This document shows, in pieces, positions 7,017 to 58,752 of a stretch of 64,000 nt of DNA. The notes under the pieces were generated by a model. It was not told where the DNA came from, ran no database searches, and was given only the letters and a program-made list of their open reading frames with translations. How positions within the stretch are numbered: the first letter of the stretch is position 1; the number at the start of each line of letters is the position of its first letter. The translations under genes and the position numbers were made by a program. Location: assembly GCF_044324785.1 (NCBI RefSeq), contig NZ_CP172127.1; one strand, 5' to 3'. The DNA comes from Escherichia coli (lineage in GTDB: Bacteria; Pseudomonadota; Gammaproteobacteria; Enterobacterales; Enterobacteriaceae).

Positions 7017-7025
7017 AATCGCTCC

Positions 7026-12230: not shown

Positions 12231-12238
<8 letters not shown>

Positions 12239-39358: not shown

Positions 39359-41147
39359 AGACTGTCTCATAATCTTTGTCGAACAGGTTGGCTATTTTAC
39401 CACGAACTGTCAGGTGAGAGGTGACCGGATACGCAACCGCAAGATCCCACAAGCTCACACCGCCCATTTTAACGGTTTGATAAGGATAAGATGAGTAATC
39501 CTTATCATAGCGAGTGCCTAAATACTGATAAGTAATACCCCAGTCGAAGTCATACAACTGCCAGTCGAGCTGGTATTTCACCTGCTGTTTAGCACGGCGT
39601 AACAACGGCGTGTCGGTAATTGCATTGCGCGCATCGACATAATCATAACTCACAGTATGCGTCAGTGGTCCGGTATCAAAATTGGCGGTCGCCTCGACGC
39701 CCTTAATCCGCGCTTTCCCTTCGTTGTAATATTTCAGGGTGTGATCATCATAATCGATCAAGTCACTGACATCGTTACGATATCCGGAAATACGCCAGTT
39801 CACCCCAGCGGTTAAACCTTCAAACGCGCCTTCCCACTGTTTGCTTTTCTCAGGGTCCAGATTCGGATTTCCGTAGAAACCATACAGTTGTCCAAGATTT
39901 GGTGCCTTATAAGATGTCCCGTAGGAAGCAATGAAGCGATAACCTTCGATTAATTCCCAACCGATGCTGGTTTGCCAGGTTCCATGACGACCAAACTGTG
40001 AGTTATCGTCGCTGCGTGCTGCGCCTTCAAAGGTAAAATCGCCGACTTGTTGCAGCCCGGTCAGATAGATGCCGGTATTACGTTGATCATATCCATCCTC
40101 AACATAACCTGTACCCGGCGTCGTAGTCTGTTTCTGCCAGTCGACACCCGCACCAATACTACCGTGACCAACGATGACATTGTTTGCCCACTGGACGGTG
40201 TACTGCTTCATCTCATCCAGCGTCGCGGACGAATCATAACGACCATAATGGGGATCGTAGTTGTAATCTTTGCTATGGCTATAGCTGGTAATGAGTTGTG
40301 ATTTAATCAGTTCGCCGTTATAGCGCAGCCCGGCGTCCCAACTTTGGCTATAGAGTTTACGGGTATCGAGCAACGGTGAGCCGGGAGAATAATACGCGTC
40401 ATAATTGGTACGGTTATCATAGCCATAGCCGCGCACAAAGCCGCTCCAGGCATCAGTAAAGTTATGCTCCAGCGCGCCATAAAGCGTTTTACTTAAAAAA
40501 CCATCGTTATCTGTCTGCGCTTGCGTTCCGGTATTACCATAGGCAACAACATCATAACCATGAGTATGGGCATAATCGCCCAACAACGTTACTCGTGTCT
40601 TATCCCCCAGTTGTTGCTGCGTAGAGACATCATAGTTCTGATAACTATTGCTTCCCCACCCTGCTGAAATTTCCGTTCCGGGTTCATCGCGCGTCGTGAT
40701 GATATTCACCACCCCGCCTATTGCATCGGAACCATAAACGGCGGAGCGCGGCCCACGGATATATTCAACACGCTGGACAAGCGCAATAGGGAACTGGCTA
40801 AGGTCGGCAGAACCACTCACCCCCGCCAGATTCAGGCGTACGCCATCAATTAACACCAACACATGACTGGCATTTGTACCGCGAATAAAAATAGATGATA
40901 GCTGACCTGAACCGCCGTTTTGGGTGATATCCACGCCCGGAAGACGGCGCAGCACATCATTGACCGAGGTCGACTGCCAGCGGTCGATATCCTGACGCGT
41001 CACAATGGTGGTTGGTGCAAGCACAGTGCTGCGCGGCTGTTCAAAACGGTTAGCAGTAACGACGAGAGTATCCGGGCTGGTATCCTGTGCCCAAGCAGAA
41101 AAGGCTGTGACAGAACACGCCGTCAGCAGCGAAGCTTTTTTAATCAT
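39303..41147 (-). CDS. btuB: TonB-dependent vitamin B12 outer-membrane transporter
   Basis: 614 aa from [20 protein letters not shown] signal peptide; TonB box DTLVVTA; C-terminal ...YTF. Confidence 0.96.
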
Positions 41148-41390
41148 TGTAAAGCATCCACAATAGAAGAAGGATGCCGCAGGTTTCATCAATATTACGC
41201 GATGATGAGAACCAGATGCGACGTTGGCCGGCAGGTCTTCGGGCTTGGAGGGGTATCTAAGATACTAAGAGATGATGACTTCCCACCGGATGGCAGTGTC
41301 CGCATAACGCAATCATCGCACCTTTCCTTACCGCTGCGCGTCAGCTCCAGATTCGCACTGGATTCCCTATTAACTCACAGGACCGGCAAG
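41148..41390 (-). ncRNA. cobalamin (B12) riboswitch / btuB leader
   Basis: About 240 nt leader upstream of btuB start, matching the btuB B12-box leader by recall. Confidence 0.75.
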
Positions 41391-41515
41391 TGGATGCTAC
41401 AGGTTGTAACAAGTTACTGTCCAGACGTAGCTCACAAATAGGAATTCATCAAGATCTGGACATCTGATGAGCAATCCCTACAATCGCCGCGTACTTTAAT
41501 TTTTCAGGATACATC

Positions 41516-42616
41516 ATGACCCCCGAACACCTTCCAACAGAACAGTATGAAGCGCAGTTAGCCGAAAAAGTGGTACGTTTGCAAAGTATGATGGCACCGT
41601 TTTCTGACCTGGTTCCGGAAGTGTTTCGCTCGCCGGTCAGTCATTACCGGATGCGTGCGGAGTTCCGCATCTGGCACGATGGCGATGACCTGTACCACAT
41701 CATTTTCGATCAACAAACCAAAAGCCGCATCCGCGTGGATAGCTTCCCCGCCGCCAGTGAACTTATCAACCAGTTGATGAGCGCGATGATTGCGGGTGTG
41801 CGTAATAATCCCGTTCTGCGCCACAAGCTGTTCCAGATTGATTACCTCACCACGCTGAGCAATCAGGCGGTCGTTTCTCTGCTGTACCATAAAAAGCTGG
41901 ATGATGAGTGGCGTCAGCAGGCGGAAGCCCTGCGCGATGCACTGCGCGCGCAGAATCTGAATGTGCATCTGATTGGTCGGGCAACGAAAACCAAAATCGA
42001 GCTGGATCAAGATTACATCGACGAACGTCTGCCGGTCGCAGGGAAAGAGATGATCTACCGTCAGGTAGAAAACAGCTTTACCCAGCCGAACGCGGCGATG
42101 AATATTCAGATGCTGGAATGGGCGCTGGACGTAACCAAAGGCTCAAAAGGCGATTTACTGGAGCTGTACTGCGGCAACGGTAACTTCTCATTAGCCCTGG
42201 CGCGCAATTTTGATCGGGTATTAGCCACCGAAATCGCCAAGCCTTCGGTCGCTGCCGCGCAATACAACATTGCCGCTAACCATATTGATAACGTCCAAAT
42301 TATTCGTATGGCGGCAGAAGAATTTACTCAGGCGATGAATGGTGTACGCGAGTTTAATCGCCTGCAAGGGATCGACTTGAAGAGTTATCAGTGCGAAACC
42401 ATTTTTGTCGACCCACCGCGCAGCGGTCTGGACAGTGAAACCGAGAAAATGGTGCAGGCGTATCCGCGTATTCTGTATATCTCCTGCAATCCGGAAACGT
42501 TATGCAAGAATCTGGAAACATTAAGCCAGACGCACAAGGTTGAACGTCTGGCTCTGTTTGATCAGTTCCCCTACACGCACCATATGGAGTGCGGCGTATT
42601 ACTGACCGCGAAGTAA
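41516..42616 (+). CDS. trmA: tRNA (uracil54-C5)-methyltransferase
   Basis: 366 aa [29 protein letters not shown]...; SAM-MTase motifs. Confidence 0.95.
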
Positions 42617-42617
42617 A

Positions 42618-42655
42618 ATCTATGCCGGATGCGCCAGCATCCGGCATGATACCGA
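42618..42655. terminator. hairpin between convergent trmA and yijD (REP-like palindrome)
   Basis: GCCGGATGC-gccag-GCATCCGGC perfect inverted repeat. Confidence 0.55.
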
Positions 42656-43015
42656 TTACTCAGCAACTTCCTGCTTACGGTTACGCATCTTCGCGCCAAT
42701 CCAGAACACCATAATGACGGACAGTACTGCCGGGAAGAAGTTAGAGCCGATATCCGGATATTCCGCACGAACTACCGTGCTGTACAGCAGTACGCCGAGA
42801 ATAAAACAGGCAGCTGCCAGACCCGGCAAGCCTACCGGCATAGTGCGATTAAGATAACGTTGATGCAGGCAGTAAACCGTCAGCACCAGGGAAATAATCG
42901 GGAATACAGAAAATGGCACAATGGAGCTAAACAGCGCTGCGAAAGTACCATTAATCGATAAGCCAGCCACCAGCGCCAGCAGCAGCGTACCTCTATCTTG
43001 ATTTGCTTGTTTCAT
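42656..43015 (-). CDS. yijD: DUF1422 inner-membrane protein
   Basis: 119 aa hydrophobic ORF; conserved position next to fabR. Confidence 0.85.
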
Positions 43016-43662
43016 TACTCGTCCTTCACATTTCCCGGAATAATTGCGGATTTCTCTTGTTCACGGCGATACCAGTAATAAGCCCCTTTCGAAATCATTC
43101 GCAGTTGCAGTACCAGTCGCTCTTCTAATTGCCGACGTTGTTCGACGCCGACGTCCAACGCCTCGGCACCCGCACTGAAGACAATCGTCACCATGGCTTC
43201 GGCTTGCGCTTCAGTAAACGCACGCGGCATATGGTTTTCGAGTTCCAGATAGTCCGCAAGTTCCGCAATGAAGTGCTGAATTTCACGCGCAACGGCGGCA
43301 CGAAACGCAGCGGAGGTGCCGGAGCGTTCCCGCAATAATAACCGGAAGGCGTTAGGATTATTACCGATGAACTCCATAAATGTGGAGACCGAGGTACGGA
43401 TCACACTCCCGCCTTTGGCGATACGCTGACGCGCCTGGCGCATGAGTTGGCGTAGCATTAAACCGCTCTCATCAACCATGGTCAGACCCAGTTCGTCTAC
43501 GTCGCGGAAATGCCGATAAAAAGAGGTGGGAGCAATGCCCGCTTCACGCGCCACTTCACGCAAACTCAGGCTGGCGAAGCTGCGTTCAGCACTTAATTGG
43601 CTAAATGCGGCTTCCACCAGCGAACGGCGGGTTTTTTCTTTTTGTTGCGCTCTTACGCCCAT
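43015..43662 (-). CDS. fabR: TetR-family repressor of unsaturated fatty acid synthesis
   Basis: Start taken at [20 protein letters not shown] (ORF is open 32 codons further upstream, so start is ambiguous); TetR HTH. Confidence 0.85.
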
Positions 43663-43996
43663 CACGATGTCTGAATCCTTGCCAAAAGTACTGCTGGCAC
43701 TATACCAGAGAATGAACATACTGGATTGCTCCAGTGTTGTGAATGAACGGTAACGCAATAAAACATATTTACTGCAATTCTTTGGCCGGTTCTTTTACGT
43801 ACAACGGAAACCTGCCGCTTAAACGGAGAGTATCGTCGATAAAAATCCAATAAAACGTTCAGGTCAAAAGTAAGAAACAGACAAAGCAAAGGCCGCTCAC
43901 GCTATAGCCAGATAAATGACGGGGATCAATTGGCTTACCCGCGATAAAATGTTACCATTCTGTTGCTTTTATGTATAAGAACAGGTAAGCCCTACC

Positions 43997-45397
43997 ATGC
44001 CACATTCCTACGATTACGATGCCATAGTAATAGGTTCCGGCCCCGGCGGCGAAGGCGCTGCAATGGGCCTGGTTAAGCAAGGTGCGCGCGTCGCAGTTAT
44101 CGAGCGTTATCAAAATGTTGGCGGCGGTTGCACCCACTGGGGTACCATCCCGTCGAAAGCTCTCCGTCACGCCGTCAGCCGCATTATAGAATTTAATCAA
44201 AACCCACTTTACAGCGACCATTCGCGACTGCTCCGCTCTTCTTTTGCCGATATCCTTAACCATGCCGATAACGTGATTAATCAACAAACGCGCATGCGTC
44301 AGGGATTTTACGAACGTAATCACTGTGAAATATTGCAGGGAAACGCTCGCTTTGTTGACGAGCATACGCTGGCGCTGGATTGCCCGGACGGCAGCGTCGA
44401 AACACTAACCGCTGAAAAATTTGTTATTGCCTGTGGCTCTCGTCCATATCATCCAACAGATGTTGATTTCACCCATCCACGCATTTACGACAGCGACTCA
44501 ATTCTTAGCATGCACCACGAACCGCGCCATGTGCTGATTTACGGTGCTGGAGTGATCGGCTGTGAATATGCGTCGATCTTCCGCGGTATGGATGTAAAAG
44601 TGGATCTGATCAATACCCGCGATCGCCTGCTGGCATTTCTCGATCAAGAGATGTCAGATTCTCTCTCCTATCACTTCTGGAACAGTGGTGTAGTGATTCG
44701 TCACAACGAAGAGTACGAGAAGATCGAAGGCTGTGACGACGGTGTGATCATGCATCTGAAGTCGGGTAAAAAACTGAAAGCTGACTGCCTGCTCTATGCC
44801 AACGGTCGTACCGGTAATACCGATTCGCTGGCGTTACAGAACATTGGGCTGGAAACTGACAGTCGCGGACAGCTGAAGGTCAACAGCATGTATCAGACCG
44901 CACAGCCGCACGTTTACGCGGTGGGCGACGTGATTGGTTATCCGAGCCTGGCGTCGGCGGCCTATGACCAGGGGCGCATTGCCGCGCAGGCGCTGGTGAA
45001 AGGTGAAGCCACCGCTCATCTGATTGAAGATATCCCTACCGGCATTTACACCATCCCGGAAATCAGCTCTGTGGGCAAAACCGAACAGCAGCTGACCGCG
45101 ATGAAAGTGCCATATGAAGTGGGCCGCGCCCAGTTTAAACATCTGGCACGCGCACAAATCGTCGGCATGAACGTGGGCACGCTGAAAATTTTGTTCCATC
45201 GGGAAACGAAAGAGATTCTGGGTATTCACTGCTTTGGTGAGCGCGCTGCCGAAATTATTCATATCGGTCAGGCGATTATGGAACAGAAAGGTGGCGGCAA
45301 CACTATTGAGTACTTCGTCAACACCACCTTTAACTACCCGACGATGGCGGAAGCCTATCGGGTAGCTGCGTTAAACGGTTTAAACCGCCTTTTTTAA
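43997..45397 (+). CDS. sthA: soluble pyridine nucleotide transhydrogenase
   Basis: 466 aa [25 protein letters not shown]...; FAD/NAD Rossmann motifs. Confidence 0.96.
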
Positions 45398-46297
45398 CAC
45401 TTTATCGAAATGGCCATCCATTCTTGCGCGGATGGCCTCTGCCAGCTGCTCATAGCGGCTGCGCAGCGGTGAGCCAGGACGATAAACCAGCCCAATAGTG
45501 CGGCGTGGTTCCGGCTTAATGCACGGCAGATAAACAACCCCATCGCGTTTGCGCTCCGGCGGCACAGCCAGCGCTGGCAATAAAGTGATCCCGCTACCTG
45601 CCGCCACCATGTTGCGCAGCGTCTCCAGGCTGGTCGCGCGGAAGTGTGTATCTTCATCTGCCCCGGCTTCAAAGCAGAAACCCATTGCCTGATCGCGCAA
45701 ACAGTGACCGTCTTCCAGCATCAGCAGTTTTTCCCCTGCCAGATCGGCCATCGGTACGCATTCGCGGTTCGCCCACGGGTGATCTTCATAGATAGCCAGC
45801 AACATTGGCTCATCAAACAACGGCACTTCAATGAATGCTTCGCTCTCTTTCACCAGCGCGAGGATCACGCAATCGAGTTTGCCGCTGTCCAGTTGCGCCA
45901 GTAACTGGTGGGTCTGTGCTTCATGCAGATACATTTCCAGCTTTGGAAAGGTCTGGTGCAGCATCGGGATAATATGCGGTAGCAGGTACGGCCCGACCGT
46001 GGGAATCAAACCAATATGCAGCGGCCCGGACATGGTCTCACCCTGCTGGCTTGCCATCTCTTTAAGGACTTTCACCTCACGCAGCACGGTACGCGCCTGA
46101 TCCACCAGCAGCATTCCCGCCTGGGTGAACAACACTTTACGGCTGGTCCGCTCCAGCAACATCACGCCCAGCTCATCTTCCAGCTTACGAATTTGCCCGC
46201 TAAGCGTCGGCTGGCTAACGTGGCAGGAGTCTGCCGCACGCCGAAAATGGCGGTGTTCAGCCAATGCCACCAGGTACTCAAGATCACGAATATTCAT
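45380..46297 (-). CDS. oxyR: LysR-family hydrogen peroxide-inducible regulator
   Basis: 305 aa from [44 protein letters not shown] (internal Met of ORF ending 46342). Confidence 0.97.
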
Positions 46298-46392
46298 TAT
46301 CCATCCTCCATCGCCACGATAGTTCATGGCGATAGGTAGCATAGCAATGAACGATTATCCCTATCAAGCATTCTGACTGATAATTGCTCACA
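46298..46392. promoter_or_regulatory. oxyR-oxyS divergent promoter / OxyR binding region
   Basis: Intergenic region between divergent oxyR and oxyS starts. Confidence 0.7.
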
Positions 46393-46509
46393 GAAACGGA
46401 GCGGCACCTCTTTTAACCCTTGAAGTCACTGCCCGTTTCGAGAGTTTCTCAACTCGAATAACTAAAGCCAACGTGAACTTTTGCGGATCTCCAGGATCCG
46501 CTTTTTTTT
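46393..46509 (+). ncRNA. oxyS: OxyS small regulatory RNA
   Basis: GAAACGGAGCGGCACCTCTTTTAACCCTTGAAGTCACTGCCCGTTTCGAGAGTTTCTCAACTCGAATAACTAAAGCCAACGTGAACTTTTGCGGATCTCCAGGATCCGC followed by T8 terminator. Confidence 0.92.
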
Positions 46510-46548
46510 ATTCTACAGGCCCACAGCAAGAGAGCCTGATAGTAACAG

Positions 46549-47832
46549 TTACTCAATCCGATCTTTGACAATAAAGAAGTAACACAGCGCCCCGGTGAAC
46601 GTCACACAGGCCGCGATAACCAGCGCCAGATTAAACGAGTGCGTGGTATCCACTACCCAACCGGTTACGATCGGAGCAAAGGAAGCAAAAACAAAACTGC
46701 CAAAGTTTTGAATCCCGGCGATGGAAGCCACTTTTGTTTCTGACACCATCACCTGCACCAGTCCCCATGCAGATGTTCCCGCGAAATGCACGCAGAACAG
46801 CGCCATTGAGATAAACGCTACCGCCTGGGCTGGCGAGGAGGATTGCACGACCAGCAACGTGCCTAATGCCGACATCATCAAACCGCAGACAATAGCCGTT
46901 TTACGCGTCTTCGCCAGGTCGTAGCCTTTTTTCGCCAGCCGATCGACAACAATACCGTTAACCCACATCCCAACCGCCGCCGCGAGGAAAGGAATCGCCG
47001 CCACCCAACCGGTTTTCGCCAGACTGAAACCTTGTTCGGCCTGCAAATAACCGGGCAACCACGCGATGTAGAGCCAGCCTGTATAGTTGACGCCAGAGAA
47101 ACCTAAAATCATCCCCCAGGTTGTCCGATGCTTAAACAGCGCCAGCCACTCGCTAAATTGTAATTGTGGACGCGGTTTAACCGGCGCGGAGAGATAGGTC
47201 CGTTCTTCGTCGGTCAGGACAAACTGCGCCCGGTTGCGATACCACGCGTACCAACAGATCCCAACCAGAATCCCCGCCACGCCGATGATGACGAACATTG
47301 CCCGCCAGCCCCATGCCAGCTGCATCAATACAAGAGCAGGAGGCGCAATAGCCTGACCGATAACGGTAGATGAGTTAAAAATCCCCAGCGCCGTGCCGCG
47401 TTCTTTTTGCGCATACCAGTCGGTGATCGACTTTACTCCCGCAGGCATAAATGGCGCTTCGCCAATACTCAAACCAATACGCATTAAAATAAAGTGGCTA
47501 AAAGAATTAACCATTCCTGTTAATGCCTGCATTAATGACCAGAATATTAAGCCTGCGCCTAAAACTATTCGTGGGCCAAAGCGGTCTAGCAAAATACCGG
47601 AAGGGAGTTGTGAAAAACCATAAGACAGAGAAAAGGCAGAAAGCAAAACGCCAAATTCTGTCGCCGATAATCCTAACTCGCCACGAATCGCTTCGCCTGC
47701 CACGCTCAATGACGAACGGTCGAGGAAATTAACGATCCCCGCCATAAATAATAAAACCAGGGTCACTGTCTGAATACGACGAATCCGTTGCGGTTTATTA
47801 CCCGCAACACTGGTTGACACATCAACGTCCAT
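46549..47832 (-). CDS. MFS transporter, anion:cation symporter type (DgoT/ExuT/GudP-like acid-sugar permease)
   Basis: 427 aa, about 12 predicted TM helices; GLFLDRFG-like motif (LLDRFGPR); immediately downstream of the dehydratase gene. Confidence 0.85.
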   Translation of the reverse strand: MDVDVSTSVAGNKPQRIRRIQTVTLVLLFMAGIVNFLDRSSLSVAGEAIRGELGLSATEFGVLLSAFSLSYGFSQLPSGILLDRFGPRIVLGAGLIFWSLMQALTGMVNSFSHFILMRIGLSIGEAPFMPAGVKSITDWYAQKERGTALGIFNSSTVIGQAIAPPALVLMQLAWGWRAMFVIIGVAGILVGICWYAWYRNRAQFVLTDEERTYLSAPVKPRPQLQFSEWLALFKHRTTWGMILGFSGVNYTGWLYIAWLPGYLQAEQGFSLAKTGWVAAIPFLAAAVGMWVNGIVVDRLAKKGYDLAKTRKTAIVCGLMMSALGTLLVVQSSSPAQAVAFISMALFCVHFAGTSAWGLVQVMVSETKVASIAGIQNFGSFVFASFAPIVTGWVVDTTHSFNLALVIAACVTFTGALCYFFIVKDRIE

Positions 47833-48888
47833 TTTTAGCTCCTTGAGCGGAATTAATCGATTTGATGACTATTCAGAAAATAATTAAGCGAACCGTTATT
47901 ACCAGTTCCACAATGTGCCATCTTCCAGTCGTGCGACGGGGAGATACGCCGGGTCATACGGATATTTCGCCGCCAGTTTCTCATCGAAAGAAATACCCAG
48001 CCCCGGTTCATCGCCTGGGTGCATATAACCTTCATCGAAGCGCCAGCTATGCGGGAAGACTTCAAGCATTTGTTCGGAATAGCCCATGTACTCCTGAACG
48101 CCAAAGTTTGGCACCCAGAGGTCAAAATGCAGCGCCGCCGCATGACAAACAGGCGATAAATCTGAAGGGCCATGCGAACCGGTACGTACCTGATAAAGCG
48201 ATGCAAAATCGGCAATCCGTCGCATCCCGGTAATGCCGCCTGCATGGGTAATCGTCGTGCGAATATAGTCAATCAGCTGCTCTTCGATTAACTGCTTGCA
48301 GTCCCAGATACTGTTAAACACTTCACCGACCGCAATCGGCGTCACAGTATGCTGGCGAATCAGACGAAAACATTCCTGGTTCTCGGCAGGCGTCGGATCT
48401 TCCATCCAGAACAGGCGGTAATCCTCAATGCTCTTCCCAAAGCGCGCCGCTTCGATAGGAGTCAGGCGATGGTGCATGTCATGCAACAGATGTTCGTTAA
48501 AACCGAACTTATTACGCACCGCTTCGAATAACTTCGGCGTAAAATCGAGATACTTTTCTGAAGACCACAACTGCTCTTCTGGCCACAGGCCTTTGGTTGC
48601 CGGTTCATACGCCAGTCCTTTGCCCTTCGCCAGGCCATAAGTGGTTTGCATACCCGGTACACCACACTGCACACGAATCGCCTTAAAGCCCATCTGCTGG
48701 TGCTTTGCATAGTCTTCAAGGACTTCATCAATCGTACGCCCGGTGGTGTGGCAATAAACCATCACGCCTTCACGAGAAGCACCACCAAGCAGTTGATACA
48801 ATGGCATATTTGCCGCTTTTGCTTTGATATCCCACAACGCCATATCAATGGCAGAAATGGCTGACATCGTGACGGGGCCACGTCGCCA

Positions 48889-48897
48889 GTAAGCACC
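48889..48897. repeat. IS1 target-site duplication (left copy) GTAAGCACC
   Basis: Identical 9 bp at 49666..49674 directly flanking the other IS1 end. Confidence 0.95.
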
Positions 48898-48952
48898 GGT
48901 GATGCTGCCAACTTACTGATTTAGTGTATGATGGTGTTTTTGAGGTGCTCCA

Positions 48953-49228
48953 GTGGCTTCTGTTTCTATCAGCTGTCCCTCCTGTTCAGCTACTGACGGG
49001 GTGGTGCGTAACGGCAAAAGCACCGCCGGACATCAGCGCTATCTCTGCTCTCACTGCCGTAAAACATGGCAACTGCAGTTCACTTACACCGCTTCTCAAC
49101 CCGGTACGCACCAGAAAATCATTGATATGGCCATGAATGGCGTTGGATGCCGGGCAACTGCCCGCATTATGGGCGTTGGCCTCAACACGATTTTACGTCA
49201 CTTAAAAAACTCAGGCCGCAGTCGGTAA
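48953..49228 (+). CDS. insA: IS1 InsA
   Basis: 91 aa [43 protein letters not shown]... zinc-finger/HTH protein. Confidence 0.95.
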
Positions 49229-49650
49229 CCTCGCGCATACAGCCGGGCAGTGACGTCATCGTCTGCGCGGAAATGGACGAACAGTGGGGCTATGTCGGGG
49301 CTAAATCGCGCCAGCGCTGGCTGTTTTACGCGTATGACAGTCTCCGGAAGACGGTTGTTGCGCACGTATTCGGTGAACGCACTATGGCGACGCTGGGGCG
49401 TCTTATGAGCCTGCTGTCACCCTTTGACGTGGTGATATGGATGACGGATGGCTGGCCGCTGTATGAATCCCGCCTGAAGGGAAAGCTGCACGTAATCAGC
49501 AAGCGATATACGCAGCGAATTGAGCGGCATAACCTGAATCTGAGGCAGCACCTGGCACGGCTGGGACGGAAGTCGCTGTCGTTTTCAAAATCGGTGGAGC
49601 TGCATGACAAAGTCATCGGGCATTATCTGAACATAAAACACTATCAATAA
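49147..49650 (+). CDS. insB: IS1 InsB frame (expressed as InsAB' transposase by -1 frameshift)
   Basis: 167 aa ORF overlapping insA 3' end; A6C slippery motif TTAAAAAACTC at about 49198. Confidence 0.93.
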
Positions 49651-49665
49651 GTTGGAGTCATTACC

Positions 49666-49674
49666 GTAAGCACC
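49666..49674. repeat. IS1 target-site duplication (right copy) GTAAGCACC
   Basis: Matches 48889..48897. Confidence 0.95.
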
Positions 49675-50269
49675 TTTATAAAAGAATTGCCAGATATCTT
49701 CGATACGGCTGGCATCGCGGCCAATTAATTGTGGACAAAGATGATCTTTCAGATAAGAAGCGACCGACAATTCGCGCCCATTTAACGTGGCATCTCCTAA
49801 TCCACAAAGTCCGCTTTCAGTGGTTATTTTAAGCGTAACGAAATTACGTCCTGGGCAAGTAACAAAAACATCTGCAGCAATAATTTTCATTATTGCAATC
49901 TCCTGTGTTGTAAATAGACGCTTCAAACTTAATTTTACGCCTACTACCATACAAGAGAGAAAGAGCGATTATTCAACCGTGATCACATTAAAAACAAAAA
50001 TTCCCACCGAGGAACAAGAATATCCTCAAATTTCATCCACACTATTAATTACTATTGTTAAAACAACACGTTAAATAATCACATAACAAATTCCTCTAAG
50101 GAAGAGAGTCATAACAATAACAAATGATAATCATATTTTACTTAATTCAATACGTATCGATATGTTTATTTTAAAAAGATTTTTCGGAATGAGAGATGAA
50201 AAGAAGATACACAAACAGGAAGAAATACGATTAATATTGGTCGCGGTAAGGGTAGCCGTTCCTCCCTTC

Positions 50270-50376
50270 CGCAACCCATTAACCCTTGAAGTCACAGTCT
50301 ATTTCAGGCATTTCTCAACTCAAAATAACGAAGGCCAATGTGAACTTTGTGGCTCTCCAGGATCCGCTTTGTTTTC
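50270..50376 (+). ncRNA. degenerate oxyS-like sequence (pseudo-oxyS, 3' two-thirds incl. terminator hairpin)
   Basis: AACCCTTGAAGTCAC...TTTCTCAACTC.AAATAAC.AAGGCCAATGTGAACTTTGTGGCTCTCCAGGATCCGCTTTGTTTT aligns to oxyS 46410..46509 at roughly 80 percent identity. Confidence 0.7.
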
Positions 50377-50378
50377 CA

Positions 50379-51857
50379 TCAAACAACGGAACTCAGCGCA
50401 CTGGCAACCTGTTTAAAGCGAGCAAACCGTCGCCTGAGCATGTGTGCTTTTTCTACATTCGGTTCAAGACGAATCACGTTGAGATGCGTGGCCTTCATGG
50501 CCTGTTTGAATCCAGAATAAGCCCCTCCTCCTACTGCCGCACACATTGCAGCCGCTCTACAACCTGACTGTTCAATATCGACAATTTCAAGAGGCATGTT
50601 GCTGGCATCACAAAACATCTGCATCCAGATTCTGGAATGCGTTGGCCCGCCAGAGAAACGAATCGTTTGCAATGACTTATCAATCTCAATAAGACGGTCC
50701 TGATGCAACAAATGAGAAAAGACAATGCCCTGATAAATCGCGTACACCAAATCTTCTCTTTTATGATGCCCACACAGCCCCAAAAATCCCCCGCTTAATG
50801 CCTCATGGTAATTCGAGCCAAACAACCACGGGAAAAAGAGAATATCATTCTGCTTCTCATACCCTCGTTCCACCCACTCATTAATCACCCGATAGCTGTC
50901 AGGAAGATCCGGTAAAAATTGCTGCAAGAACCATGTCAAATTACTGGCTGATGTAGGGCTTCCCTCATGGGCGAAAAATGTACCTGGAATGCTAAATTTC
51001 CCCCATACATAGGGATAATCAGAAGGAATAATGCGATCAAAGATACGCGTTGCAATTGACCAGGTGCCAGCAACCGCACTTAACGTTGTACTGTCATAGA
51101 TGCCAGAAGTGAGCGCCGCACCAACGACATCAAAAACACCACCAAAAACAGGCGTTCCGGCGAGAAGCCCACATTGGCTGGCTGCTTCAGATGTCACAAC
51201 CCCTGCTAAATCAGCGGAGCCAATAATATCGGGAACCTTACCCGCAACTTCCTTAATCTCAAATAGGCGAAAAAGTTCAGCATCATAAGCACTGGTATAT
51301 TGATTATAAAAATTACTGCCTGAAATATTGGTTTCTTCACAAGCCAGTTTGCCAGTAAGCCGTGAACGTATGTAATCATGAACCATCAAAATGGTTCCGA
51401 TGCGGCCATAATTGTCAGTCTCATGTTTTTTCAACCAATGCAATAGTGCTACAGGGTGCGATGGCCAGAGCTGTTGCAGACTACGGTGATAGCTTTCGCG
51501 GTCAATTCCTTGTTCTTTCCAGCTTGCAACCAGTTGTTGTGCGCGAGAATCAGAGGAAACAATGCCGTATCGTAAGGGCTTACCTTGCCGGTCGAGCAGG
51601 TACAAACCTTTACCATGAGCAGAAAAACTGATGCCATCAATCTGACTCGCAGTAATATTGTTCTCTGACATCGACAGTGAAATGACCTGGCACGTTACCT
51701 TCCATAACGCCTCCATGTCGCGTTCGCAAAAACCAGGACATGGGCTTAACAGAGGTAACACTTGCGAAGAGACACCTATTTCACGTCCTTCTGCCGTATA
51801 AATTCCCGCTTTGGTTTCTGTACCACCTAAATCGACACCAATAAAATACCGCTCCAT
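50379..51857 (-). CDS. FGGY-family carbohydrate kinase, L-xylulokinase (LyxK/SgbK)-like
   Basis: 492 aa; N-terminal GVDLGGT, conserved HEGSPTSASNLTWF, FFPWLFGSN, GGPTHSRIWMQMF blocks resembling E. coli LyxK. Confidence 0.85.
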   Translation of the reverse strand: MERYFIGVDLGGTETKAGIYTAEGREIGVSSQVLPLLSPCPGFCERDMEALWKVTCQVISLSMSENNITASQIDGISFSAHGKGLYLLDRQGKPLRYGIVSSDSRAQQLVASWKEQGIDRESYHRSLQQLWPSHPVALLHWLKKHETDNYGRIGTILMVHDYIRSRLTGKLACEETNISGSNFYNQYTSAYDAELFRLFEIKEVAGKVPDIIGSADLAGVVTSEAASQCGLLAGTPVFGGVFDVVGAALTSGIYDSTTLSAVAGTWSIATRIFDRIIPSDYPYVWGKFSIPGTFFAHEGSPTSASNLTWFLQQFLPDLPDSYRVINEWVERGYEKQNDILFFPWLFGSNYHEALSGGFLGLCGHHKREDLVYAIYQGIVFSHLLHQDRLIEIDKSLQTIRFSGGPTHSRIWMQMFCDASNMPLEIVDIEQSGCRAAAMCAAVGGGAYSGFKQAMKATHLNVIRLEPNVEKAHMLRRRFARFKQVASALSSVV

Positions 51858-51873
51858 GATCCCTCCTTAGTTT

Positions 51874-52737
51874 CTAAATATTATCCCAGCCGGCAAGGCG
51901 CATTTTCTCTTCAATCCATTGACGTGCATGAATAATTTCTAATAGAGGTTCCGTCGCTTTTTCTGTCCACATTTCTATCAGAAACGTTCCGCGATAATTA
52001 AGATTACGCAGAATCTTAAATAATTTAATAAAATCTACACACCCTTCACCAAAAGGAACGTCACGAAATTGCCCTGGAGAATCAGGCGTTACTGGGTACG
52101 TATCTTTAAGATGGATTGCGGCAATTCGATCAATCCCCTTTACCAGCTCACTTTCCAGTTCATTACCCCATGCGGTCAGATTGCCAACATCCGGATAAAC
52201 GGTAAACCAAGGGGAATTAATTTTTGTATCCAGGACTTTCCATTTACTAATAGAATTAATAAATGGCGTATCCATGATTTCTACAGCACACATAACTTGT
52301 GCCGCTGCGGCCTGTTCAGCTGTCCAGGCCATCGCATCTTCAAACCAGGCGATAGTTTCTTCATTCTGCGGCTCATAATAAACGTCATAGCCTGCCAGTT
52401 GGATTGTTCGAATCCCCAAATCCTGCGCCAGGCGTAACGCCTTCAACATAATCGTACGCGCCTGCTGACGAGTATCTCTATCATGGCTACCAAATGGAAA
52501 ACGCCGGTGAGCAGACAGGCACATTGTCGGAATACGGATCCCCGTTTGCTGAATGGCGCTAATAAGCTCCATACGCTCGGTGAGCGACCAGTCCAGGCGG
52601 GCGAGTCGTTCATCATTCTCATCTACCGACATCTCAACAAAATCAAAACCGCAAGATTTAGCCAGGGCTAGTTTCTCTACCCAACTGGTATTCCTGGGTA
52701 GCGCTTTTTCATAAATACCTAACGGGTGGCGTCGCAT
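51874..52737 (-). CDS. L-ribulose-5-phosphate 3-epimerase (UlaE/SgbU family, TIM-barrel)
   Basis: 287 aa; PLGIYEKALP...GFDFVEMSVDE.DERL.RLDWS...MCLSAHRRFP.GS...IQLAGYDVYY motifs nearly colinear with UlaE. Confidence 0.88.
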   Translation of the reverse strand: MRRHPLGIYEKALPRNTSWVEKLALAKSCGFDFVEMSVDENDERLARLDWSLTERMELISAIQQTGIRIPTMCLSAHRRFPFGSHDRDTRQQARTIMLKALRLAQDLGIRTIQLAGYDVYYEPQNEETIAWFEDAMAWTAEQAAAAQVMCAVEIMDTPFINSISKWKVLDTKINSPWFTVYPDVGNLTAWGNELESELVKGIDRIAAIHLKDTYPVTPDSPGQFRDVPFGEGCVDFIKLFKILRNLNYRGTFLIEMWTEKATEPLLEIIHARQWIEEKMRLAGWDNI

Positions 52738-53783
52738 TATTTTCCCTCACGAGTGATCAATTGTTGTTGAAAGATTTTCCGGCTCTTATTCATGTCACGC
52801 TGCAACTGCCATTTTTGTTTGATGAATTTAAATGCCAATGCGGCGATCAATGTGATCCCCCATACCGCCAGATTGAAATGCAAACTAATTCCCAACAGAC
52901 TAAGGCCGGTAGCAATAACCTGAAGCACAAGTAAGGCACAAAAAACATGACTGACTTTACCCGCCCCACCGAATGGATCTGTGCCTCCCAATACAATTGC
53001 AAGAACCGTCAAGAGCAAATAGGAATCGCCATAGCCCATACGCGCCGAATTAAATCGCGCGAGCATAATAAGACCTGCTAATACACACAACATGCTGGAT
53101 ATAGCATATATAGCAATTAATACGCGGTCGGTGCGAATACCGCTAAACCATGTGGCGTTAATATTACTGCCACACATATAAATCGTTTTTCCCGTACGGG
53201 TTTTGCCGAGGAACAGAGCTAAAGCAACGGTGGTGACGATAAAAATCATCATCGGTACTGGGATCCCCATGATAACTTCAGACCCAATACTGCGGACTAC
53301 TGGTGGCATACCACTTAAAGCTGCCCCCTTAGTCAGGTAAATACCGATACCACTAATAATGGTCATGCTACCCAATGTGACCAAAATAGGGTGAGCGCCT
53401 ATATGAGAAATAATTAACCCAGTAATAGCTCCAATGATGATGGCAATAAGCATCGCCCCGACAATAGCCAGGAAGAGCCAAAACAACTGGCTACCTGTAG
53501 ATGCATCTGCGGGTACATATTGAATCAACACCCAGGCCATAAACAGGCTGGTCAGATTCGCAGTACCGATGATTGCCAGATTAAGCCCCCCGCTCAACAT
53601 CGGTATAAACATCGCAAACGTGAGCAACCCAAGCTCTGGCAATTGAAATGCAATGCTCAGAAAAGTATTGTCGGTGAAAAAACGCCCCGGCATTGCCAGA
53701 CTAAATAACACCACCGCAATAAAACATATTGATAATAAGCCTGAACTGGTACCATCTAGTGGAAAAAATATCCGCTTGTTCAT
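52737..53783 (-). CDS. sugar ABC transporter permease (RbsC/YjfF-like)
   Basis: Polytopic membrane protein; start taken at MNKRIFF (ORF extends to 53813, overlapping upstream permease). Confidence 0.8.
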   Translation of the reverse strand: MNKRIFFPLDGTSSGLLSICFIAVVLFSLAMPGRFFTDNTFLSIAFQLPELGLLTFAMFIPMLSGGLNLAIIGTANLTSLFMAWVLIQYVPADASTGSQLFWLFLAIVGAMLIAIIIGAITGLIISHIGAHPILVTLGSMTIISGIGIYLTKGAALSGMPPVVRSIGSEVIMGIPVPMMIFIVTTVALALFLGKTRTGKTIYMCGSNINATWFSGIRTDRVLIAIYAISSMLCVLAGLIMLARFNSARMGYGDSYLLLTVLAIVLGGTDPFGGAGKVSHVFCALLVLQVIATGLSLLGISLHFNLAVWGITLIAALAFKFIKQKWQLQRDMNKSRKIFQQQLITREGK

Positions 53784-53796
53784 TTCGATCCTCCCG

Positions 53797-54789
53797 TTAG
53801 ACGAAACCAACATCAGTTTCTTTACGCTTTTTGTAATGGGTCACACAAATCGCCGAGACAATAACCACCCCAATAACGATATTGACGAAATAACTCGAGA
53901 CACCAATCAAATTAAGGCCGTTTTTAAGAATACCGATAAGAAATACGCCCATAAGCGTACCAATGACCGTACCACGTCCGCCTGATAAACTGGCACCGCC
54001 CAATACCGCTGCAGCCAGCACATCCAACTCTCCGCCAACCAATGCATTCGGCACAACTTCACTCATACGGTAAGCTTGCAGCATTCCACCAATTGCTGCA
54101 GCGGCACCAAGATAACCGTAAGCAAACAGATAAATTAGCGACACCCGAATCCCAATACGTCTTGCTGATTCGGTATTCCCTCCCACGGCATAAAGCTGAC
54201 GCCCAATATGGGTTTTGTTCATTATCACCCACGTCAGAAATGCCATTCCCAGCATAACCACTAACGGTAATCCGATCTGGTAATCTTCTCCGCCAAATTC
54301 AAAACTCAGGAAAGAACGCTGCGTAATCCACCAATCCGGTAAATCGTAAATACTGTGACCATTAGTCAACCACATCAACATACCGAACAGTAACGACTGC
54401 ATACTAATCGTAATGATGATAGAAACGACATTAAGGTAATAAATAAGAATAGCGTTTATCAAACCAAAAATGATGCCAAAAAAAACAGCAAACACCAGGC
54501 AGAAAAATGGATTTGATAGCGTTTCATTAAGCAGTAACGACGCCACAACATATTGCACAACCGAAGCTACTGCTGCAAAAGAGATATCAATTCCGCCAGT
54601 AACCAATACGACAAATAATCCGAGGGCGAAAATACCCGTTACGGCATAACTCTCCGAGAGATCGAGCAAGTTCTGTATTGATAAAAACTCATCGCTCATG
54701 ATGGAAAAAAATACCAGCATGAGAACAATGACCCATCCTAACCAAGCTTCGACTGAACGAGGAAACCGCAGCCGCATAAAGCTAACCAT
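53797..54789 (-). CDS. sugar ABC transporter permease (RbsC/YtfT-like)
   Basis: 330 aa polytopic membrane protein; start overlaps ATPase stop. Confidence 0.8.
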   Translation of the reverse strand: MVSFMRLRFPRSVEAWLGWVIVLMLVFFSIMSDEFLSIQNLLDLSESYAVTGIFALGLFVVLVTGGIDISFAAVASVVQYVVASLLLNETLSNPFFCLVFAVFFGIIFGLINAILIYYLNVVSIIITISMQSLLFGMLMWLTNGHSIYDLPDWWITQRSFLSFEFGGEDYQIGLPLVVMLGMAFLTWVIMNKTHIGRQLYAVGGNTESARRIGIRVSLIYLFAYGYLGAAAAIGGMLQAYRMSEVVPNALVGGELDVLAAAVLGGASLSGGRGTVIGTLMGVFLIGILKNGLNLIGVSSYFVNIVIGVVIVSAICVTHYKKRKETDVGFV

Positions 54790-56299
54790 TAATCACCTCC
54801 GCCAACTGCTGCTCGGTATAATTCGAAGGCAACAGCTCATGAATAATCTTTCCGCGCTTCATATGAAAAATACGATCGCAGTTATAATAAGCTTCTGGTG
54901 CTTCATCAGTAATTAATATCACTGAAATACCCACACCTGAAAGCCGATGAATAAGCTGGTAAATACTATCTTTTGCGCCAATATCTACACCTACCGTTGG
55001 CGCATCCAGAATTAAAACCTTAGGTCGTGTTAAAATCCATTTAGCCAGGACAACCTTTTGTTGATTGCCACCAGATAGCGTTGAAAGTGGATTATTTGGA
55101 TCGGTGACCTTAATATCCAAATCCTGGATCCACTCCTTGACTAAGGTTTCTTTTCGATTTTCATCAATAAACCCCGATGGCGTCTTTAAACGATCCAGAA
55201 TCGAGAGCACCATATTATCGCTGATAGATTGGGGTAATACGGCCCCCAGTGTCAGGCGATCTTCTGAAACATATGCTATTCCCAGTTTTACCGCATGCGT
55301 GTTGTCTTTAATTGTAACGGGCTTACCTTCAAGATAAATATCACCACTATCTGCTCGAGTAATACCGAAAAGACTCAATGCTAATTCGGTTCTCCCCGCA
55401 CCAAGTAAACCACACAATCCCAGAACCTCGCCTTGGTGTAGTTTTAGAGATACATCTTCAAATTGCCCTTTTCTGCATAATTTTTTTAGTTCAAGAACTA
55501 CTTTACCTTCAACGCTATTTGGTAGTTTTTTCTGGTGGACTATAGTTTTTCCGGTCATTAACTCAGTAATATCGCCTGGAGAAAGTTGATTGGCAGCCCA
55601 CGTTCCAATTATCTCTCCATCACGGATGACCGTAATTCGGTCTGAGATTTCCTTAACTTCATCAAGGCGGTGGCTAACAAAAACTACGGTAATATTTTTA
55701 TCGCGTAAGTAATTCACTGTGCGTAGTAATTGATTAACTTCAGTGCGCGTCAATGACGCCGTTGGCTCGTCCATGATGACTAACCGGGCATCGGCAATCA
55801 GAGCCCGGCAAATAGCGACCTGTTGGCGTTGTGCAATCGGCAAATGTTGTACTAACGCATCAGGATCGAGATTGAATTCCAGTTCCTGAATTATTTTCTG
55901 TGATACATCTCGAAGTTGTTTTTTTCTGTGCAGCCCTAAATATCCCTTCAGGTTGTATTCAAAAGCGATATTTTCAGCCACAGAAAGATTTGGGAATAAA
56001 GAAAGATCCTGATATATCACCTGAATACCCAGTTCCCGAGCTTTATCAGGAGAAAGACGAGTCCAGGACTTACCATCTATAATAATTTCACTTCCCGAAT
56101 CAGGAACATAAACACCACACAGCGTTTTGATCAGAGTACTTTTACCACACCCATTCGCACCAGCAAGACAATGAACCTCACCTTTATTTAAGGTAAGATT
56201 GATATTTTTTAGAGCCCTATGGCCACCGAAACTTTTCGTTAGTGACCTTAGCGTCACTAATGGTTGCTCCGCATTCTTCTCTATAATATGAGGCATCAT
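54782..56299 (-). CDS. sugar ABC transporter ATP-binding protein (duplicated NBD, RbsA/YtfR-like)
   Basis: 505 aa; Walker A GANGCGKST in first NBD, LSGG signature in the second (LSGGNQQK), two NBDs. Confidence 0.88.
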   Translation of the reverse strand: MMPHIIEKNAEQPLVTLRSLTKSFGGHRALKNINLTLNKGEVHCLAGANGCGKSTLIKTLCGVYVPDSGSEIIIDGKSWTRLSPDKARELGIQVIYQDLSLFPNLSVAENIAFEYNLKGYLGLHRKKQLRDVSQKIIQELEFNLDPDALVQHLPIAQRQQVAICRALIADARLVIMDEPTASLTRTEVNQLLRTVNYLRDKNITVVFVSHRLDEVKEISDRITVIRDGEIIGTWAANQLSPGDITELMTGKTIVHQKKLPNSVEGKVVLELKKLCRKGQFEDVSLKLHQGEVLGLCGLLGAGRTELALSLFGITRADSGDIYLEGKPVTIKDNTHAVKLGIAYVSEDRLTLGAVLPQSISDNMVLSILDRLKTPSGFIDENRKETLVKEWIQDLDIKVTDPNNPLSTLSGGNQQKVVLAKWILTRPKVLILDAPTVGVDIGAKDSIYQLIHRLSGVGISVILITDEAPEAYYNCDRIFHMKRGKIIHELLPSNYTEQQLAEVING

Positions 56300-56362
56300 A
56301 ATATTCCTGAATACGACTAAAGGAATTCCGGGTCAAATTTGACCCGGTGATTTACGGTAAAA

Positions 56363-57367
56363 TTACAAGCCTAACTTCACTAAATGTCGTGTATTTTCAA
56401 GATCGAGCTTTTCTGGATTATCACTATAAATAGTGTTGTTATTAACCTTGATCTCGCCCATATCACCGATTTTTACACCGTCTTTAATAGGTTCACCGTT
56501 CATCATTGCCGTCGCAACCTGGACAAAAACCTTACCCGCAATCATAGGGTTTGAAATATATCCCCCATCAATGGCGCCTTTTTCGAGTAGCTTAATTCCC
56601 TGACCTGGAGTGAAGGTTCCAAAAACGCAAATTGCGTCATTTTTCTTCCGCTTATCAATAGCACGCCCCGCACCAATTGGTCCTTGTGAACCAAATGACA
56701 TAATGCCTTTAAGATCTTTATATTTAGACATTAAATCGTTCGTCGTGCGCATTGAATCATCCACCGATTCAGCAACACCAAAACGATCTTCAACCAACGT
56801 CATATTTGGATAATGTTCTTTTTGATAAGCAATCGCGGCATTGGCCCAGTCATTTACCAAAGGCACGGTCAGACTGCCGACAAACATGGCGTATTTACCT
56901 TCTTCGCCCATGCACTTCGCCATATCTTTCATATGATTGGCACCCATTGTCTGGGTATTTAACAACTCAAAATCCCAATCTGCATTTTTTTGATCTGGTG
57001 ATTCGTGGGTAATAACTTTAATACCGGCTTCTTGTGCACGCTTAAGTACAGGTTCAAGAACCTTTGCATCGTTAGGAACAACCCCAATAACATCCACTTT
57101 TCGTGCAATTAAATCTTCAATCGCCCGAACCTGTTCAGCTGGATCTGCCGTTGTAGGGCCGACCTGCCATGCATCAACCCCCAATAGTTTTCCTTCATCT
57201 TTAATGCCTTGTTCCATCACATTAAACCAGGGAATGCCACCGACTTTTACTACTACCCCCATCGTAAAAGGTTTATTCGCTTTTTGTGATGTTACAGTCT
57301 GATCAGCCCATGCAGCAGTGGAAGATAATACGGTAGCAATAAGGCAGGGTAAGATTAATTTTTTCAT
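56363..57367 (-). CDS. periplasmic sugar-binding protein (PBP type I, RbsB/YtfQ-like)
   Basis: 334 aa; signal peptide MKKLILPCLIATVLSSTAAWA; first gene of ABC operon. Confidence 0.82.
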   Translation of the reverse strand: MKKLILPCLIATVLSSTAAWADQTVTSQKANKPFTMGVVVKVGGIPWFNVMEQGIKDEGKLLGVDAWQVGPTTADPAEQVRAIEDLIARKVDVIGVVPNDAKVLEPVLKRAQEAGIKVITHESPDQKNADWDFELLNTQTMGANHMKDMAKCMGEEGKYAMFVGSLTVPLVNDWANAAIAYQKEHYPNMTLVEDRFGVAESVDDSMRTTNDLMSKYKDLKGIMSFGSQGPIGAGRAIDKRKKNDAICVFGTFTPGQGIKLLEKGAIDGGYISNPMIAGKVFVQVATAMMNGEPIKDGVKIGDMGEIKVNNNTIYSDNPEKLDLENTRHLVKLGL

Positions 57368-57390
57368 CGTAATTTCCTTAAGAAATAGTT

Positions 57391-57430
57391 CAGGTGTCAG
57401 GAAAACTCGATATAATATCGACCTGACTAT
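57391..57430. promoter_or_regulatory. palindromic candidate operator/promoter upstream of ABC operon
   Basis: Perfect 15-bp palindrome TCGATATAATATCGA flanked by GTCAGG / CCTGAC half-sites, 30-70 bp upstream of SBP start; contains TATAAT. Confidence 0.4.
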
Positions 57431-57489
57431 TTATATAATTTATAATCCCTTAGGCATTGATTAATAATTTAGACAATAAATAATGCCTA

Positions 57490-58299
57490 TTATTTATCAA
57501 CCTCCACAATGTTTAATTGTGGAAATTGTGTTCGATACCGAGTATCTGTACAAACATTAGTCACCAGAATATCGATTTCATCCAGCGTGCATATTTTACT
57601 AAATGCATACTGTTCAAACTTACTGGAGTCGACCAGCAATATTTTTTGTCCTGACACCTGAAGCATCACCTGTTTAAGTCTGGCATTAATTTCACTGCCA
57701 TCGCGGACACCATTCCCCAGATTCAACCCCTGGCATGAAAAGAAAAAACTGTTGATTTGAAAATTTCGGATCGCCCCCTCTGCAACCGGGCCATGAAAAT
57801 CATCATGTCGCTCAGAATACTCACCACCGATACCAATAATTCGAACTCGATCACGGCAAGCCAACGCCTGAATTATCCGTAATGAATTTGTAACTACAGT
57901 AACATCTATATCGGGAATTTGACGAGCTAAAAACCAACAAGTACTACTGTTATCCATTAAAATACAATCACCAGGGTGAATAAATTGCAATGCGGCCTTC
58001 GCAATTCTGGCTTTTATATCAGGATTTTCTTCAGTCCGTTTACGGAATGATTCCGCACGATCGATACTATTATCTTGCCACGCATTATCGGCGAGCATAA
58101 CCGGAGCGCTATCAGATGAATCCAGAGCGACCGCGCCACCAAAGCTACGGATTAACTTTTTGTTGCGCTCCAGTACCGTTAAATCCCGACGAATTGTCTC
58201 AGGAGACGCTTTAAATAATCGTGATAATTCTGTTACCTGTACAGCACCTTGTTTTTGTACATGTGCGCATATCATTTTATGGCGCTCTGCCTGCAACAT
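57490..58299 (-). CDS. DeoR-family transcriptional regulator (sugar-phosphate sensing type)
   Basis: 269 aa; N-terminal HTH (VTELSRLFKASPETIRRDLTVLE) and C-terminal DeoR-C sugar-phosphate binding domain. Confidence 0.85.
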   Translation of the reverse strand: MLQAERHKMICAHVQKQGAVQVTELSRLFKASPETIRRDLTVLERNKKLIRSFGGAVALDSSDSAPVMLADNAWQDNSIDRAESFRKRTEENPDIKARIAKAALQFIHPGDCILMDNSSTCWFLARQIPDIDVTVVTNSLRIIQALACRDRVRIIGIGGEYSERHDDFHGPVAEGAIRNFQINSFFFSCQGLNLGNGVRDGSEINARLKQVMLQVSGQKILLVDSSKFEQYAFSKICTLDEIDILVTNVCTDTRYRTQFPQLNIVEVDK

Positions 58300-58752
58300 A
58301 GTATCGGTCCGTTATTATCAAATTAGCATGCTTATATAATTAACTGTTCCCTCATAAAATAAAGTGATAGGAATCAAGATTCATTTTATAAATATAATCG
58401 CAAACAGAAATGGTGATCTTTACCACAAATTAAATTGAGAATATTCTACTATTGGACATTTTTTTGAGATATACGTCACTAAATAAGCTTTATTCTGTCA
58501 CCTGACGAAAAATTTAAATGCAAAAACAAAAATAATCGGGCATAGCAATCTCTTCCATTCATGACCGAATACGCCCGAATAAAACCGTTTACGCCCACTT
58601 ACCCTCTTTCATTGCCTTCTTACATGCCTTGAATATTTTACATTTCTTATATTCAGCGTAATTTAGGCAACATAATTTACGAGCAAAAATAGCCAAAACC
58701 CAAAAGTTAAAGTTTATTTATATAATACATACAGATTATCGTGGAGTTAAAA

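Follow-up and report, generated by a model that had tools for sequence, protein, structure and literature searches.

The locus analysed here raises the question of whether an IS1 element really entered a dehydratase gene of E. coli and, if so, which gene was hit, how recently, and with what consequence. The window, that is the whole stretch of 64,000 nucleotides that was analysed, had been described in an earlier note as carrying a recent IS1 insertion within an RspA/ManD-family dehydratase at 47899-49890, and this span corresponds exactly to the interrupted open reading frame on the minus strand. IS1 was inserted into the manD gene at the coordinates given in Table 1, a reading to which we assign a probability of about 0.96, and nothing that we found contradicts the insertion itself.

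Table 1. Position, strand and basis of assignment of the features at the interrupted manD locus (coordinates of the window).
Feature	Coordinates	Strand	Basis
MFS transporter gene, 427 aa, D-galactonate-transporter-like	46549..47832	-	ORF; TIGR00893 269 bits, below cut-off
manD 3' fragment: duplicated codons 73-75, codons 76-404 and stop	47899..48897	-	ORF list, excision
Target-site duplication, left copy, GTAAGCACC (manD codons 73-75, Gly-Ala-Tyr, minus strand)	48889..48897		
Complete IS1 (IS1A-like), 768 bp	48898..49665	+	Boundaries read from sequence
IRL of IS1, GGTGATGCTGCCAACTTACTGAT	48898..48920	+	18/23 positions complementary to right end
insA ORF, 91 aa, GTG start, zinc-ribbon/HTH part of transposase	48953..49228	+	ORF list; NF033558 profile 1-81
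Programmed -1 frameshift motif TTAAAAAAC, insA to insB'	49202..49210	+	Motif located; simulated slip
insB' frame past frameshift site, catalytic DDE part	49207..49650	+	ORF 49147-49650; NF033558 profile 75-199
IRR of IS1, ...ATCAATAAGTTGGAGTCATTACC	49643..49665	+	Comparison with left end
Target-site duplication, right copy, GTAAGCACC	49666..49674		
manD 5' fragment, codons 1-75	49666..49890	-	ORF list
AT-rich non-coding region, 488 bp, upstream of manD; presumed manD-MFS promoter region	49891..50378	-	Inference only

The inserted element starts with GGTGATGCTGCC and ends with GGAGTCATTACC. Its terminal inverted repeats are imperfect (18/23 positions match), and the direction from insA to insB is that of the plus strand, antisense to manD. 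Both insA and insB' matched the IS1 family transposase profile NF033558 at complementary profile positions (1-81 and 75-199, respectively), the insB' frame closes with TAA at 49648-49650, and a simulated -1 slip at the A6C motif TTAAAAAAC gave an open InsAB' of 232 aa. A crude promoter scan returned a promoter-like match at 48905-48932, within the IRL, at the known position of the IS1 insA promoter.

IS1A of E. coli K-12 (NC_000913.3 19796-20563) matches the window copy in its length of 768 bp and in its ends; in both, insA and insB' are joined through the A6C -1 motif, and both come with a 9-bp target duplication. The two elements are identical at 766/768 positions; the two differences, at IS1 nt 262 and 687, are both synonymous, so that the InsAB' proteins are the same. 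Additionally, many E. coli chromosomes and large plasmids carry copies, labelled 'IS1-like element IS1A family transposase', that match the element at 100% identity. Its length, inverted repeats, insA/insB' with the A6C motif, 9-bp duplication and near-identity to the reference element place it in the IS1 family. The ends of the element, insA, the A6C motif and the 232-aa InsAB' frame are intact, and the earlier description of a complete 768-bp IS1 at 48898..49665 stands.

The 9-mers beside the element are both GTAAGCACC, at 48889-48897 and 49666-49674, and the identity ends at 9 bp, so that the perfect target-site duplication that had been claimed is found as described. The chance of an identical pair of 9-mers at these fixed positions is 4^-9 = 3.8e-6. 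IS1 duplications of the 9-bp class make up ~78% of events, and targets are 8-9 bp with a preference for AT-rich sequence (PMC10359306). It had also been stated that removal of IS1 with one copy of the repeat restores a continuous protein, and we ran this check. Joining 47899-48897 to 49675-49890 gave 1215 nt, which is divisible by 3, and the two fragments joined in frame and were translated on the minus strand without a stop into 404 aa, including the 33-letter peptide quoted in the earlier note.

The restored protein scored 732.8 bits against NF043051, the NCBIfam ManD equivalog (cut-off 550), and 807 bits against NF011654 (cut-off 430). Its best solved relative was RspA (PDB 4IL2), a starvation-sensing protein or low-efficiency ManD-subgroup enzyme, with a full-length alignment of 901 bits in which, read by eye, roughly 90% of the residues are identical. 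Five motifs of the barrel domain, AIR147VQ, TTY159G, HD212MH214H, WME238DP and VGE264VF, are identical in RspA in this alignment. We take them to hold the residues with known roles in the NaManD literature, namely the Arg147/Tyr159 dyad, the Asp-x-His and the two Glu metal ligands. Restored manD thus encodes a member of the D-mannonate dehydratase family (ManD subgroup, enolase superfamily).

The orthologous locus in annotated E. coli genomes is called manD (PGAP) and lies beside an MFS transporter gene and oxyR; the manD-MFS pair is kept in other strains, where the locus is situated between oxyR and argH. RspA is encoded elsewhere (ynfA-rspA-rspB) by a paralog of which the DNA is only about 80% identical to manD. 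The interrupted gene is the manD paralog at oxyR-argH, separate from rspA at ynfA-rspB, and the label 'RspA/ManD-family' was correct at the level of the family but not for rspA itself. The ManD protein WP_000690934.1 of E. coli 2015C-3121 shares the locus, the neighbours and the length of 404 aa with the window gene. Alleles at oxyR-argH showed 98-99% nucleotide identity to the window manD, and the 2015C-3121 allele differs from the restored gene by one amino acid; unlike the gene for WP_000690934.1, the window manD is broken after codon 75 by IS1 and is a pseudogene.

A manD gene at ≥95% identity was present in 1,860/5,426 complete E. coli genomes (~34%), by which manD is an accessory gene. 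A further island with sugar ABC-transporter, FGGY-kinase, epimerase and DeoR genes, located between manD and argH, was found in the window and in 146 genomes. Comparison of manD with the 2015C-3121 allele gave 22 synonymous and 1 non-synonymous difference (pN/pS = 0.013). This ratio shows that manD was under strong purifying selection before the insertion and was not already in decay, and therefore that the lesion has destroyed a gene that had been maintained.

Full-length ManD cannot be made from the split gene. As it stands, the 5' reading frame continues for 26 further codons into the IRR and stops at 49585-49587, giving a product of 101 aa; exact-product look-ups of this fusion ORF, in forms of 101 aa and 121 aa, returned no record. 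The longest ORF left in the 3' fragment starts at Met83 (48867) and encodes 322 aa, in which the motifs of the barrel domain are kept and the first 82 residues are gone. No intact, expressible manD ORF is present in this genome, and what remains is a ManD-family pseudogene.

The MFS transporter gene follows manD on the minus strand after a spacer of 66 bp and is a probable operon partner of it. In a crude scan of the 66-bp spacer no promoter-like match was seen, and one weak terminator-like site was detected. IS1 is classically strongly polar and, as the spacer is without a recognisable promoter, the transporter is probably also expressed less. Whatever sugar-acid dehydration the accessory manD-MFS pair provides has probably been lost from the strain. 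For annotation, the gene should be recorded as a manD pseudogene broken by IS1, with possible polarity on the neighbouring sugar-acid transporter.

Public contigs of relatives, retrieved by exact-protein look-ups of the neighbouring genes, gave a direct view of the site before the insertion. The relative L017 (GCA_044697405.1) has no IS1 and shows 100.000% identity with the window, over 6192 bp on one side and 3296 bp on the other, and manD of L017 and of a further relative, L020, showed 0 nucleotide differences from the restored gene. This answers the search for strains with an uninterrupted gene that had been proposed earlier. A third relative with an empty site, L023, showed 1 mismatch to the window in 14,335 bp. 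Compared to the empty-site allele, no sequence was lost or rearranged in the flanks. The araD-like gene of the window has a private-looking 10-bp frameshift deletion at about 58906. The same deletion was found in 16 contigs, and manD has an empty site wherever such a contig reaches it, which means that the insertion post-dates the deletion. The claim of a recent event, previously drawn from the intact repeat and element ends, is in this way confirmed by empty-site alleles that match both the flanks in the window and the restored gene at 100%. The insertion is simple and very recent.

Searches of 5,426 complete E. coli genomes, GTDB representatives and JGI metagenome contigs gave no match to the exact IS1-manD junction, and a megablast of the interrupted gene against the same 5,426 genomes gave four places covering at least 80%, none with the same junction. 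In this respect the window element differs from IS1A of K-12, in that it occupies a chromosomal site that is absent from the complete E. coli, GTDB-representative and JGI-metagenome collections searched. On present sampling the insertion is private to the sequenced genome, and it is a useful private marker of the sub-lineage, as relatives one SNP away are without it.

IS elements are a classic source of misassembly, and this lack of the junction in all three collections could also be expected if a repeat copy had been misplaced inside an intact manD during assembly. However, such a misjoin would not yield a precise 768-bp element with a perfect 9-bp target duplication (p about 4e-6), and both flanks run on without loss of sequence compared to the empty-site allele, so that we regard an artefact as very improbable. 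Even less credit is given to the reverse course, in which the IS1-bearing state is ancestral and the intact alleles were produced by precise loss of the element. Such excision of IS1 between 9-bp repeats occurs at very low frequency, and we found nothing that specifically favours it here. Every other allele or lineage examined has an empty site; this holds for about 1,860 complete genomes and also for the genomes that share the 10-bp araD-like deletion, and parsimony prefers one insertion over many excisions.

The window spans purD to argE and is collinear with strain N3 except for IS1, a divergent btuB segment and a small indel. In a comparison of 48 N3 genes, the araD-like gene is the only disrupted one apart from manD, and the others are intact or differ from N3 solely in frame or by truncation at the window edge. 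The earlier note had linked the insertion to IS1-rich E. coli/Shigella lineages. This suggestion was not supported, as the 64-kb window contains one IS element (a blastn of the element against the window gave 1 IS1 copy), its other genes are mostly intact, and the contigs of the relatives at this locus are 55-56 kb long. A single IS and largely undamaged genes over 64 kb speak against a genome heavily loaded with IS elements. IS1 was not found on the N3 chromosome, where a query of manD plus IS1 matched two places, the same two as manD alone. The best identities of complete genomes to the window were only 98.6-99.3%. Since none of the complete E. coli genomes reached ≥99% identity over window positions 1-24000, the lineage of the window is not sampled among the complete RefSeq E. 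coli genomes, though near-identical draft contigs exist.

With respect to the course of events, one IS1A-type element transposed into codons 73-75 of manD, and the usual staggered cut, followed by repair, duplicated the 9-bp target GTAAGCACC. This split manD into a 5' piece of 75 codons and a 3' piece of 329 codons, with neither a deletion nor a rearrangement, and it took place very recently on the line leading to the sequenced genome. The element entered next to the part of manD that is richest in AT, at a place where IS1 has inserted independently in other strains. In an ordinary event, IS1 has thus knocked out an accessory manD very recently; mutations of this kind are routine and already known, and the finding has little significance beyond annotation. 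The best-supported refinements to the earlier note are the identity and locus of the gene, the direct empty-site proof of recency, and the finding of no support for an IS1-rich lineage.

The place of the insertion was compared with other IS1 insertions in manD and rspA. In the orientation of manD the duplication of the window reads GGTGCTTAC and occupies nt 217-225 of the gene. The 15-mer of manD with the lowest GC content (13%) is located at nt 202-216, where it abuts the duplication directly upstream; this fits the reported preference of IS1 for AT-rich targets (PMC10359306). The duplicated 9-mer itself has 56% GC, and the AT-richness is confined to its neighbourhood. The draft assembly GCA_000778895.1 has a different manD allele, which carries another IS1 variant (8/749 mismatches, flanks 97.9% identical) in the same orientation, of which the end lies 3 bp further upstream and abuts AAAGGTGCT. 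In E. coli PM7 it is rspA, at the ynfA-rspB locus, that has an IS1 at the homologous place (NZ_CP073996.1 726802-728793), in the orientation seen in the window and with a 9-bp duplication, AGCACCTTT, that is the reverse complement of AAAGGTGCT and is offset by 3 bp from GTAAGCACC. The PM7 insertion concerns the rspA copy in another strain, with 3/768 differences in IS1, and is an independent event.

Rather than a random hit, the insertion could thus reflect a sequence-determined IS1 hot spot common to manD and rspA, perhaps together with selection for loss of the dehydratase, which we consider slightly better than an even proposition. It is favoured by the three independent IS1 insertions within 3 bp and in one orientation (window manD, GCA_000778895.1 manD and PM7 rspA), a clustering well beyond chance; the naive chance of two further same-orientation hits within +/-3 bp in a gene of 1215 bp is about 1e-5. 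Other independent lesions of manD are known as well. Strain N3 and metagenome contigs carry the nonsense mutation E64*, strain 1916D18 has an IS1 at codons 15-18, two metagenome contigs show a 13-nt deletion, and in 2015C-3121 an IS1 is situated just past the stop codon. However, a selected loss of manD is not supported, given the pN/pS of 0.013, the intact manD in the nearest relatives of the window, and the lack of a pseudogene flag on manD in most of the matches listed, from roughly 1,860 carrier genomes. On the same ratio, we ruled out that the recurrent lesions of manD stem from relaxed selection. As purifying selection is strong, we read the recurrent lesions of manD as mutational noise plus a hot spot and not as selected loss. 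A hot spot would account for the landing place of IS1 and leave the nature of the feature, an IS1 knock-out of manD, unchanged.

IS1 was also detected near rspA in 58 complete genomes. The four of these that were inspected are not further hits at the hot spot; in each, IS1 borders a deletion next to rspA or rspB, adjoining phage-type genes or ydfJ. An IHF site was rejected as the cause of the hot spot; by eye, a match to WATCAANNNNTTR with one mismatch lies beside the manD site, whereas the rspA site matches poorly. Likewise, the target resembles the IS1 end in part (CAGTAAG...CACC), but no more than chance would allow.

For the more specific proposal, that codons 72-75 of manD and rspA (the Tyr-Lys-Gly-Ala-Tyr region), by a 12-bp A/T run, form a strong and orientation-specific IS1 hot spot with at least three natural hits, we see the odds as evenly balanced. 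If it is true, manD and rspA would be unusually prone to knock-out by IS1, and would offer a natural substrate for the study of IS1 target choice. The only wider interest of the locus lies in these three independent IS1 hits within 3 bp in two paralogs, which illustrate the regional preference of IS1 for AT-rich DNA.

Comparison of the manD gene and its paralog rspA revealed three independent IS1 insertions, two in manD (the window and GCA_000778895.1) and one in rspA of E. coli PM7, that are separated by at most 3 bp and have the same orientation. All three insertion sites adjoin the 15-mer with the highest AT content in the gene. Because the three insertions are clustered, share their orientation and adjoin this 15-mer, the manD/rspA site is probably a natural IS1 hot spot. 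In 58 of the complete E. coli genomes, rspA and an IS1 were within joining distance of each other. We inspected the rspA-rspB regions of four of these (B18271, 2017-02-1CC, LF3-1 and GPT21-003; L028-L031), and all four were found to be IS1-bounded deletions that take out rspB or the 3' end of rspA and leave the locus fused to phage-type genes or ydfJ.

Other lesions were also observed at the manD locus. Strain N3 has a near-identical manD allele that is inactivated by a different route than the IS1 of the window, namely G190T leading to E64*, 11 codons upstream of the window IS1 site, where the window has an intact GAA codon. The E64* allele is also present on several metagenome contigs (listed with N3 as L019 and L007). 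Independent IS1 insertions were detected at manD codons 15-18 in E. coli 1916D18, with the 8-bp duplication CGAAATTA, and just downstream of manD in E. coli 2015C-3121, 4-12 bp from the stop codon, with the duplication AGCGAACCG, where IS1 stands between manD and the MFS gene. The shortened manD of 1916D18 is annotated in RefSeq as an ordinary CDS despite the insertion.

Between manD and argH the window carries a sugar island encoding a sugar ABC-transporter, an FGGY-kinase, an L-ribulose-5-P 3-epimerase and DeoR (also L005), which was covered for at least 80% in only 146 of the 5,426 complete E. coli genomes; in most manD carriers manD directly adjoins argH. The araD/sgbE-like L-ribulose-5-phosphate 4-epimerase gene of the island has a 10-bp deletion after position 58906 in comparison to N3, shifting the frame after residue 51. 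A look-up gave 16 contigs with the same deletion, and manD was intact on those that reach it.

None of the 5,426 complete RefSeq E. coli genomes reached 99% identity to the window, either over positions 1-24000 or over 40000-48897. Contigs of 99.98-100% identity nevertheless exist among drafts and metagenomes, and therefore the lineage of the window has been sampled by drafts only. Further differences from N3 were found in btuB, thiF, zraP and the nfi-hemE spacer (see table). In btuB, about 1.2 kb inside the gene gave no megablast alignment to N3 and both flanks aligned; the window btuB looks like a mosaic or recombinant allele. The btuB gene of N3 itself is annotated as frameshifted.

Positions of the features in the window and in the compared loci (L-handles).
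Feature	Position	Remark
Window manD, IS1	48889-48897 / 49666-49674	clustered insertion 1
GCA_000778895.1 manD, IS1	L011:720-760	clustered insertion 2
PM7 rspA, IS1	L026:3990-4790	clustered insertion 3
N3 manD	L001:8001-9215	
1916D18 IS1	L002:4172-4939	
2015C-3121 IS1	L003:3005-3772	
Sugar island	49666-58300	
araD/sgbE-like gene	58753-59432 (+)	
zraP	4118-4540	2-residue in-frame indel relative to N3
nfi-hemE spacer	about 7021-7029	shorter by ~140 bp relative to N3
thiF	12231-12965	6-residue in-frame gap relative to N3
btuB	39473-40696
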